This document shows, piece by piece, positions 3,001-6,000 of a DNA stretch of 27,818 nucleotides. Made by a program: the position numbers. Origin of the DNA: a virus (Duplodnaviria > Heunggongvirae > Uroviricota > Caudoviricetes); the IMG/VR virus record IMGVR_UViG_2740892369_000014; one strand, written 5' to 3'. Within the stretch, counting starts at the first letter, position 1; every line of letters starts with the position of its first letter.

Positions 3001-6000
3001 TTGGTCAGCTTCACTGCCTTACCTCCGGTTCCCTCCGCATCGCTGACCACTTCTGCCCTGCCGCCACTGGCTGACCATCCCTGTACTTTCAGGCTTCCCT
3101 CTGACTCGCTGGCAAGGTAAGAGAGCAGTGTTGTGACGCCTGTGGCTTCTGCACCGGAAGGCGATGAAGGGCGCACCTCTGATACTGTCGATGATGCCCC
3201 CGCGTTTAGCGCCACTCTTCCCGCATGGCGCAAAATCGCCGTTGCCAGACGGTCGGAAATAATCCCACGGCGTGCCCAGGCGCTGAAATGGCTCGCCCTG
3301 TCCTGTGACGTCCAGGTGGCTGAGCTGTCACGCCATTTCGAACCGTAATATCCGATACCCGGAATGTCCGGGTCTTCTTCCGGTTTGTTCGTCGGCACAT
3401 TCACCCCGTTCTCATCGGTCATGAACGGTACGAAATGGATATTCTTTTCCGTTTTGTTTTTATAGCTGCCGTACACCGTCTGGTACGTGGATTCGTTCTT
3501 CTGCTTCCAGAAATACGTCGTATCTCCACATATCCAGGGAACACCGCCAGCAGAGCCACCGACGCACTGACCTGCCATATCCGCCAGGTCTGCACGGAAT
3601 TTATCAACCAGCGCACCAAACTGTGCTGCGTGATTTGCCGGCGTACCGCCAAAATCAAATTCCCCCTGCATCCACACCACGGCAAACAGCACATTTTTCG
3701 GATTCTTCTTCAGTGCTGCTTTTGTTCGACCGATAAGGTCCTTATACAGCGGCTTGTCCACACCCCAGCGGGTTGAATTCTCCGAGGCACCACTCGCGTC
3801 ACTGTATGTGCCATCGGCTCCGGTGGTGAACGCTGAACCACCACGACAGCACGGAACCAGCAGAATGCCCGCATTCGCCGGTATAAACGGCAGCAATTTT
3901 TTGGCGATATGCAGCCCTTGCCCCACGGTTCCGTACTGCCCCTTTGACAGGTCCGCTTTCGGATGGTTAAGGCGGCTCATGTCCTGCACATCATGCAGAC
4001 AATGGTCCGCCGGAATGATGTCGTTATATTTACAGGCGACACCGCCCGGTGTCACCGTACTGCGACGCGCCAGCTGCTTAATGCGCGGGTCCGGACGGTC
4101 ATATGTCTCCGGCAGCGGAAGGCCTTCACCATATGCCATGCTGTTTGACTGCCCCGCCAGAACCACAACAAAGTAATACTCCGGGTCTCTGGTGGCGCTG
4201 ATTACTGTGCCTTCTCCATCCGACGGCTTCACCAACACAGGTGTGGTGACATCACCTTCCGCCGCAATGGCCTGCATCAGAGTATAAGGCGTGATGGCCA
4301 CCGGGCTGCCAAATGGCTGCCACCCCTCCTTCAGTTTTTGTGTCAGCTTTTCCGCAAGGTCTGACGGCGACGCCGCCCTGACAACATCATAATGTTTAAT
4401 CGACATCGAATTTCTCCCGTGTACAGGAACAGAGTTAAAAAGCCGGAACCGGAATCAAATTACAGGATGGCCATCTGCCAGTGGCTGGTCGTAAAAAAAG
4501 GCCACGCCATGCGCAGCCGGAAATAAAGGGATAACGATGATAGTTTGAGAAAAACAGAAACAACACTTTTGTGGCAAAGCATGGTGCCGGGTGCCTCCCG
4601 GTGAATTCAGTATCAGCACCTGAATCCGCGATTATCCCATATACCTGGTTGCTGATCGCCCCTCCGCACAGGGGGATTCACCATGCAGAAGTGTTTTTAA
4701 TAAACAGCAAACAAAAAAATCAAGCATTATGCAGGCTGTTTCTTTTTATCACCGGCCACAGCAATACCACAATGCCGCAGACCAGCACCCCATCCGCCAG
4801 CACCGACATGATTCTGCTGGTGAAATCCACCATCACCACCAGAAACAGCAGGAGTGCAGCCACAGCCAGGCGCAGTTTTACCGTCACAGGTGATTCTCCA
4901 GACGAAGACCCAGAACACCGGCAATCTCTTCCAGCACCTTGCGCTCTTCCGGCTCAATTTCGCCGTCTGCCTCCGCAATGGCCACCGCCACATCCAGCAC
5001 ATCTTCCGCTTCACGCGTATCGTGTTTCACATCCTCAATCTCGCGTAACGCGGCACGACGACCAATTTTAAAATTGGTATCCAGCTGACCGATAATAGTT
5101 GCGCTAATCGCATTAATTTCCGAGGTAAACGCAGACAACGCAGGCTGATTACGTAAGACCTGTTCGATCTTCGCTTTCTCGGATGCCTCGCATTCACCAT
5201 CTGCATAGGCCACCAGGTATGCAGCGTTAATCACCGCCTGTGCCAGATCGCGTTTCTCAAACTTTTTAATTTCCGCTGCCGCTCTGCGGGTTTTCTTTTT
5301 GAAGATTCCAAACATCGTGACGTTCCTTTGGGTGGGTGAGCCAACGCCCGGGAGCGATCTGCCCACAGAGAAAGTCACACTGACCACTCCGTAAGCTCAC
5401 CCCCGAAAGGCTCTGTGGTTGATATGCGCCGGGCGTGGCGCAGATACAAAAAAGGCCCGCCGAAGCGAGCCTGGAAAATAAGTGTGGCGCGTTGTAGTGG
5501 AGTCGAACCACTGACCGATTGCTTAGAAGGCAATTGCTCTGTCCGACTGAGCTAACAACGCATGATGCTGATAATGGACCGCCATCGGGGACTTGAACCC
5601 CGCGCAGCCAGCTTCGAAGGCTGGCGCTCTGTCCCGATGAGCTAATGGCGGTATGTGATATGGTGGCCCTTGCTGGATTTGAACCAGCGACCTGGCGATT
5701 ATGAGTCGCTCGCTCTCACCACTGAGCTAAAGGGCCGAGCCAAAAAATAATAATCAGATGAAAATCAATAATCAAGCCCTTGCCTGGATACATATCTGTC
5801 TGGCGGGAAGCCATAATAGCGGTGAAATACAGAAATAAAGTAGGACCTGCTTGAATAACCGCATTTTTCTGCTATAGCCTGTCCATATCCATGCCGGGAA
5901 CATAACATATTTACAGCAACACGCATCCGCTCTTCCAGCAACAAGCGACTGAACATGCCCCCTTCATTTTTCAGTTTTGTCTTTAACAAACTCTCACTCA

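Follow-up and report, generated by a model that had tools for sequence, protein, structure and literature searches.

The phage module tciA–tciB occupies the stx cassette slot of a lambdoid late operon

The 27,818-nucleotide Caudoviricetes sequence of IMG/VR record IMGVR_UViG_2740892369_000014, hereafter called the window, contains a two-gene cassette consisting of tciA, which encodes a TerB-family protein, and tciB, which encodes a 55-residue DUF3927 protein. All gene features of the locus are located on the minus strand. From upstream to downstream, the locus is composed of a gene for a Q-type antiterminator, an AraC-family gene, three tRNA genes, a hairpin, tciA, tciB, a small RNA (sRNA) gene, a second hairpin, an esterase gene and lysis genes. 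No stx gene is present between the tRNA genes and the esterase gene. The original prediction had described a TerB-domain protein and a 55-residue hydrophobic protein at positions 4720–5315, joined through a GTGA overlap, and this description is exact to the base. The features of the pair are as follows.

4884..5315, minus strand: tciA, encoding a 143-residue TerB-family protein (Pfam, PHROG and Protein Data Bank (PDB) matches and an AlphaFold2 (AF2) model)
5324..5328, minus strand: Shine–Dalgarno motif AAGGA of tciA, 8 nucleotides 5′ of the ATG, read from the sequence
4720..4887, minus strand: tciB, encoding a 55-residue DUF3927 protein with two hydrophobic segments (Pfam, phrog_1470, hydropathy and alignments)
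4884..4887, minus strand: GTGA stop/start overlap of tciA and tciB (tcac on the plus strand), with the GTG at 4887–4885 and the TGA at 4886–4884
4896..4899, minus strand: Shine–Dalgarno motif GGAG of tciB, inside the end of tciA and 8 nucleotides 5′ of the GTG

The tciA reading frame lies inside an open reading frame (ORF) at 4884..5387, starts with the ATG at 5315 and ends at 4884. TciA matches the Pfam TerB family PF05099 (E = 2.9e-16; 60.2 bits against a cut-off of 24.4) and aligns end to end with phrog_632 (E = 1.7e-69; residues 1–143 of 143). In a comparison with the Klebsiella TerB structure (PDB 2JXU), TciA residues 14–137 align with residues 20–144 of 153 (E = 4.4e-8). The profile search thus bears out the TerB assignment, and these three matches speak against membership of an unrelated helical family, the alternative that had been left standing for the protein. 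In the NCBIfam scan, no family reached its cut-off and only DjlA, YmfL and anti-sigma-E models appeared below threshold; TciA residues 87–138 weakly match the TerB part of the DjlA model (28.6 bits against a cut-off of 162). TciA is a genuine full-length TerB homologue and not an unrelated helical protein.

The AF2 model of TciA, built with 22 homologues, is all-helical and contains nine helices, with a predicted local distance difference test (pLDDT) value of 88 and a predicted TM-score (pTM) of 0.82. Foldseek searches with this model gave modest scores, none at E ≤ 0.001, and 2JXU itself was not ranked in the list. The best match was 2h5n (PG1108, a protein annotated only as having unknown function; E = 0.015, TM 0.55–0.62), followed by 2ou3 (COG3793 tellurite-resistance protein; E = 0.62, TM 0.41–0.45). 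TciA is acidic overall, with 27 Asp and Glu residues and 21 Lys and Arg residues, and contains no transmembrane segment by hydropathy. Its N-terminus is polybasic and conserved; residues 1–22 comprise nine Lys/Arg and two Asp/Glu residues, yielding a net charge of +7, and carry a hydrophobic tip. These features describe a soluble and acidic protein that is related to TerB over its full length and begins with a conserved polybasic stretch; the helical model agrees with a TerB-like fold.

TciA contains two ADGE...E motifs at residues 38–46 and 116–124. The D39, G40 and E46 residues of the first motif and the D117, G118 and E124 residues of the second are invariant or nearly so in the alignment of the 22 homologues. 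Anantharaman and colleagues are said to have proposed, in 2012, the paired acidic DG...E motifs of TerB as a metal site.

TciB matches the Pfam family DUF3927 (PF13064) with an E value of 4.3e-17 (62.3 bits against a cut-off of 25) and the PHROG family phrog_1470, named 'TciB-like', with an E value of 4e-30 (residues 1–54 of 54). The start codon of tciB is GTG. Two hydrophobic peaks in the hydropathy profile of TciB are centred at residues 12–15 and 38–42. Charged residues precede the peaks (K4 and R6), occupy the dip between them (D21 and R25) and follow them (K48 and R49). The two hydrophobic segments are joined by a short, conserved D-F-T-S-R link, and the VDF(T/S)S, (A)DG and WP..K motifs are conserved in the alignments. 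The hydropathy profile and the positive-inside pattern of the charges suggest that TciB forms a hairpin in the inner membrane with both termini on the cytoplasmic side (N-in/C-in), a predicted topology that agrees with the hydrophobic character first attributed to the protein.

Substitution patterns were compared with those of phage JLK-2012. The tciA genes of the window and JLK-2012 are 91% identical in nucleotide sequence, with 32 synonymous and four non-synonymous differences among 36 changed codons; 32 of the 38 changes fall at third codon positions. In codons 1–36 of tciB, 14 codons differ (11 synonymous and three non-synonymous). The same substitutions read in the other five frames give the reverse pattern, mostly non-synonymous, or a weaker one. 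Judged by this substitution pattern, tciA and tciB are both real coding genes under purifying selection. Conservation of the 55-codon frame, on which the original prediction had made the existence of the small gene depend, is upheld by the Pfam and PHROG matches, the alignments and the synonymous excess.

Identity to JLK-2012 changes abruptly within tciB. The 5′ part of the gene is JLK-2012-like (86% nucleotide identity), and the 3′ part, with only 44% identity to JLK-2012, resembles that of phage 434. Because the identity to JLK-2012 falls after codon 36 and the sequence becomes 434-like, a mosaic recombination breakpoint is placed inside tciB at approximately codon 36/37 (window position ∼4779).

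The GTGA overlap is also found in JLK-2012. At the level of sequence, the overlap and the Shine–Dalgarno motif inside the tciA end show tciA and tciB to be translationally coupled. Several database entries join TerB and DUF3927 in one polypeptide. Entries P0181 (197 residues) and P0243 (170 residues) read both in one frame via frameshifts near the GTGA, and one of the two is mislabelled 'zinc-finger family protein'; these fusions are probably sequencing errors or pseudogenes. The candidate 'Rosetta-stone' fusions P0172, P0181 and P0243, all frameshift joins, look like errors or pseudogenes and were not counted as evidence of interaction. The P0130 fusion, whose N-terminus was read by eye as histidine phosphatase-like, looks like an error or a pseudogene and was likewise not counted. 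In an AF2 model of P0181, made as a stand-in for a TciA–TciB complex, the TciB part is a single long helix with a pLDDT of 46–63, too low to be informative.

The tciAB pair is flanked by elements that define an exchangeable slot, as listed below.

7052..7594, minus strand: Q-type antiterminator gene (DUF1133/Phage_antitermQ profile match), upstream of the whole block
5485..5736, minus strand: three phage tRNA genes, namely Arg-TCT (5485–5561), Arg-TCG (5575–5651) and a tRNA with a CAT anticodon (Ile2/Met; 5661–5736)
5453..5472, minus strand: terminator-like hairpin with a T-run, 3′ of tRNA-Arg(TCT), at the upstream edge of the slot
5316..5452, minus strand: 5′ leader of tciA, a long imperfect hairpin (minimum free energy −56.7 kcal/mol, z = −2.55)
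4543..4715, minus strand: STnc100/PasD-family sRNA gene (Rfam RF02076; 104.7 bits against a gathering score of 47), directly 3′ of the tciB stop codon
4500..4518, minus strand: terminator-like hairpin with a T-run downstream of the sRNA (sequence scan)
2469..4406, minus strand: gene for a 645-residue NanS-p-type sialate O-acetylesterase (DUF1737, SASA and DUF6645 by Pfam), followed by the lysis genes

The slot was compared among phages by junction-level alignments at both edges. At the upstream edge, the tRNA-Arg(TCT) terminator is common to Stx2a_1447, phiSTEC1575-Stx2k, phi296, PhiR49_2 and JLK-2012, and the sequences diverge just past the T-run. The STnc100/PasD sRNA forms the downstream edge, with the promoter region of the sRNA as the downstream junction; the sRNA core is common to the Stx1 phage 75/02, Stx2a_1447, PhiR49_2, 434 and JLK-2012. 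Between these same two junctions, stxAB is found in Stx2a, Stx2k and Stx1 phages and tciAB in JLK-2012 and the window. In PhiR49_2, the terminator T-run continues straight into the region 5′ of the sRNA, and Nil3 exhibits the same compact spacing; the slot is therefore empty in both. The tciAB cassette of ∼740 bp (window ∼4706–5445) thus lies at the position that stxAB takes up in Stx phages, an exchangeable slot in the late operons of lambdoid phages, and the earlier proposal of an stx slot without stx is confirmed by junctions shared with Stx1, Stx2a and Stx2k relatives.

The window tRNAs correspond to the ileZ-argN-argO set of Stx phages, and their homologues are so annotated in Stx2a_1447. 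The AraC-family helix–turn–helix gene (5765–6478, minus strand) lies between Q and the tRNA genes, has a good promoter-like site of its own (ATGATA-16-TATAAT at 6514–6541, minus strand) and is found upstream of stx2k in phiSTEC1575-Stx2k. A promoter-like TTGATT-17-TTAAAA element precedes the sRNA, and its −35 hexamer overlaps the TGA codon of tciB. A 2026 preprint from the Storz laboratory (bioRxiv 10.64898/2026.05.13.724894) places PasD/STnc100 directly 5′ of the esterase gene and reports TerB among the genes common near the related prophage sRNAs PasA and PasC. Farther from the slot, the nin region holds a ParD/ParE-type toxin–antitoxin pair (∼9419–9981, plus strand; RefSeq annotation of the identical O26 prophage).

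The tciA leader at 5316–5452 is also present in JLK-2012. Its hairpin may function in processing or in regulation; an Rfam scan of the tciA 5′ untranslated region for a riboswitch or leader returned nothing at E ≤ 1.

The window pair is a known, named and annotated phage module, tciA/tciB, and the window contains another copy of it; the original prediction overrated its novelty because the pair was not recognised as this module. A 1.1-kb segment surrounding the pair is found with 100% identity in prophages of enterohaemorrhagic Escherichia coli (EHEC) O26:H11 11368, O103:H2 12009, O157:H7 and others, and at least 80% of this segment is carried by 646 of 5426 complete E. coli genomes (∼12%). 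In the RefSeq annotation of an identical prophage, the two products are called 'tellurite resistance TerB family protein' and 'DUF3927 family protein'.

The TerB–DUF3927 arrangement extends to phages unrelated to the window. A tblastn search identified TciA in 131 phage records and TciB in 34. Annotated pairs with TerB followed by DUF3927 are found in P1, the N4-like phage Pollock and the Erwinia jumbo phage Asesino, and tblastn matches to both proteins occupy neighbouring positions in P7, Klebsiella phage 5 LV-2017 and Salmonella phages FSL SP-058/076. DUF3927 is a rare family, with only 62 clusters among 1.84 billion representative proteins. Six divergent DUF3927 representatives were looked up, one of which lies on a truncated contig; each of the five informative representatives (38–53% identity) has a Pfam TerB gene immediately upstream with an overlap of 1 or 4 nucleotides. 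Across the 10 TerB–DUF3927 pairs examined, the genes overlap by 1 or 4 nucleotides, abut or are separated by 3 nucleotides. The order of TerB followed by DUF3927 and the coupling of the two genes are shown to be conserved across P1-like, P2-like, lambdoid, N4-like and jumbo phages.

The tciAB pair adjoins tRNA genes in four unrelated phage types, each with a different tRNA set. The tRNAs are Ile2/Arg/Arg in the window (5485–5736), Asn/Thr/Gly in JLK-2012 (L002, 6144–6377), Asn/Thr and Ile2 in P1 (L004, 1849–2002 and 3434–3509) and Trp/Cys in Asesino (L011, 594–1064).

The expression context of tciAB was examined by sequence scans and by the annotation of related operons. The pair had been called a moron; in the strict sense of an element with its own promoter, this term is not supported, as a consensus scan for sigma-70-like promoters upstream of tciA found no site of at least 9/12 in 5316–5490, and the best candidates in the leader reach at most 7/12. 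The lack of such a promoter, the two flanking terminators and the position downstream of Q argue that most tciAB expression would come, as for stx2, from the late transcript that Q antiterminates after induction. In P1, tciABC belongs to the ban operon, which is annotated as C1-controlled in the GenBank record. In a P2/186-like operon, the TerB–DUF3927 pair lies downstream of cox and fil, and other pairs are found beside DNA polymerase (PolA) or primase genes. The pair is also present in virulent N4-like and jumbo phages. The missing promoter, the flanking terminators, the annotated operon positions and the virulent-phage carriers suggest, by genomic position and annotation, that tciAB acts in lytic growth rather than in classical lysogenic conversion. 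The P1 operon with tciABC also has a 'dicF-like region', and the window contains a DicF RNA gene in the prophage early region (19475–19526, plus strand; 75 bits against a gathering score of 48).

A membrane-tethered arrangement is proposed for the two proteins. The TciB hairpin in the inner membrane would recruit TciA to the cytoplasmic face during lytic growth. This tethering is suggested by the hydropathy and charges of TciB, the +7 charge of the N-terminal 22 residues of TciA and the analogies with TerB–TerC and DjlA. TerB reportedly partners TerC, an integral membrane protein (PMC11003894), and in DjlA a TerB-like domain comes after a membrane helix (PMC11709261); TciA–TciB may be a two-gene equivalent of the TerB–TerC pairing or of the DjlA membrane helix and TerB domain. 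More speculatively, the TciA–TciB complex might act in the infected cell as a sensor or buffer of membrane or cation stress. It might keep the membrane energised until programmed lysis, in the face of pore-forming colicins, DNA entry by superinfecting phages or premature triggering of the holin.

The module is expected to be dispensable for plaque formation. In P1, tciA, tciB and tciC were scored as non-essential by CRISPR interference (PMC10695390), and tciABC counts among the eight variable regions of P1-like phage-plasmids and is missing from nearly half of subgroup 1 (PMC9603915). As a whole, the explanation that combines the slot cassette, Q-dependent late expression, tethering of TciA by TciB and dispensability has, in our assessment, an even chance of being correct. 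We propose only tentatively, and with the odds against it, that TerB and DUF3927 constitute a self-contained two-protein membrane module, present in at least five unrelated phage types, that protects the energised inner membrane during lytic growth through superinfection or colicin exclusion or through lysis timing.

Several observations weigh against this lytic-growth, membrane-tethering reading. In phages 434 and 2B8, tciB is located behind an unrelated 247-residue membrane protein without a TerB gene, and TciB can therefore persist without TciA. Conversely, Pseudomonas, Vibrio and Sinorhizobium phages contain a TerB gene without an annotated tciB. A divergent pair on a 2-Mb contig (L016, 2558–3162) adjoins genes for AIPR (an abortive-infection family), SMC_N/AAA_23 and Metallophos, and this chromosomal setting is defence-island-like. 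The lack of a recognisable promoter at tciA may reflect a non-canonical or activator-dependent promoter. Finally, only homology-based mentions, and no experiment, were found in the literature on tciA, tciB and DUF3927; a review (PMC11652158) repeats the homology-based guess on tci function.

Two side results concern these exceptions. The 247-residue protein 5′ of tciB in phage 434 was considered as a hidden TerB and rejected, as it has no Pfam match and no BLASTP similarity. On contigs related to L016, the TerB–DUF3927 pair adjoins an H-NS gene.

Expression in the lysogen is the assumption that separates the foremost alternative, in which tciAB is a lysogenic-conversion defence pair that protects against other phages and pore-forming colicins, in a reduced form of the ter-operon Phi and PacB phenotypes. 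The link of ter clusters to resistance against phages and colicins (PMC11003894, citing Whelan 1995), the TerB-like protein of the Shango defence system (PMC10250203), the variable accessory status of tciABC in P1-like elements (PMC9603915) and the AIPR and SMC_N/Metallophos neighbours of the one chromosomal pair are all consistent with it. However, the consensus scan found no promoter by which the pair could be expressed on its own, and a terminator lies directly upstream; the virulent N4-like and jumbo phages that carry the module make no lysogens, and the temperate-phage copies reside in operons annotated as lytic-cycle. PADLOC returned only a 14.5-bit match to PDC-S48, taken as chance, and the pair has no ATPase or helicase partner. 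Of the stress and phage-defence link raised in the original prediction, the association in the literature stands, and the PADLOC search adds no real match to it. We regard a lysogenic defence function as rather unlikely.

A host-takeover role has also been considered, in which TciB, modulated by TciA, would act during lytic development like the small Kil-type phage proteins and block cell division or the growth of the envelope. The P1 GenBank note lists 'inhibition of cell division' as an option by homology, and the annotated position of the pair in lytic-cycle operons would suit such a role, as would the toxicity of overproduced membrane-anchored DjlA and the defects that suggest a role of DjlA in division or membrane integrity (PMC11709261). 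The idea is nevertheless pure analogy, and searches of Pfam, NCBIfam and PHROGs revealed no similarity to known division inhibitors, which makes a division-inhibitor function appear improbable.

The family name and the database labels would make tciA a genuine tellurite-resistance determinant, a label that is based on homology only. The locus contains the TerB homologue alone, with no TerC, TerD, TerE or TerZ nearby, whereas resistance constructs in the literature carry terBCDEF or more (PMC11003894), and tellurite resistance is accordingly a very remote prospect. The notion that the 55-codon ORF is a chance frame and only the TerB gene is real, for which its shortness, hydrophobicity and GTG start could be cited, has practically no chance in view of the Pfam and PHROG matches, the 62 clusters with a conserved motif, the 11-to-3 synonymous excess and the conserved position behind TerB in unrelated phages.

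As a finding in the window, the pair is ordinary, its genes being already named, profiled and annotated. Its wider relevance lies in two areas. For EHEC biology, the stx slot emerges as a cassette site of general use, in which one pair of junctions encloses toxin genes, tciAB or nothing. For TerB biology, TerB domains are widespread, in pathogen ter operons, DjlA and Shango, and tciA–tciB is the smallest conserved TerB system, at ∼600 bp. The module is small, non-essential in P1, present in model phages (P1, and tciB alone in 434) and carried by ∼12% of complete E. coli genomes, and it is therefore a convenient experimental entry point. If the proposed membrane protection during lytic growth is true, a minimal TerB system would have its first defined activity, which would offer a way into the role of TerB domains in ter operons, DjlA and Shango.

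The window pair was compared with known TerB-containing systems. Shango, which combines a TerB-like protein with an ATPase and a helicase, shares the TerB-like domain (PMC10250203), but no ATPase or helicase genes are located at the window locus and PADLOC gave no Shango match. DjlA, composed of a membrane helix, a TerB-like domain and a J domain, resembles the pair in linking a membrane anchor to a cytoplasmic TerB-type domain (PMC11709261); the window pair differs in that it has no J domain and its anchor is a separate polypeptide. The TerB proteins of terZABCDEF clusters (PDB 2JXU) share full-length homology and the paired acidic DG...E motifs with TciA, whereas the window gene is located outside a ter operon, without TerC, TerD or TerE, and is partnered by a 55-residue membrane protein.

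The stxAB cassettes of Stx1 and Stx2 phages share the slot and its flanks with tciAB, in the order Q, tRNAs, terminator, cassette, STnc100/PasD sRNA, nanS-p and lysis genes, and by position also the transcription context. Their cargo is unrelated, and the window carries no toxin.

The tciA–tciB(–tciC) genes of P1 (AF234172; phrog_632 and phrog_1470) resemble the window pair in gene order, touching frames and adjacent tRNA genes, with 42% identity between the TciA proteins and 50% identity between the TciB proteins. The P1 pair belongs to the ban operon, in contrast to the window pair, which belongs to a lambdoid late operon downstream of Q. The sRNA gene comes directly after tciB in the window, which thus lacks tciC; P1 TciC belongs to no searchable family. 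The tciA/tciB cassette of JLK-2012, with which the PPyecE prophages ('TciA/TerB-like protein') are grouped, differs from the window in its Asn, Thr and Gly tRNAs, in another Q and in the 3′ third of tciB, which is 434-like in the window. The two cassettes nevertheless occupy the same slot between the tRNA block and the esterase gene and share the leader, the GTGA overlap and a TciA protein that is 97% identical.

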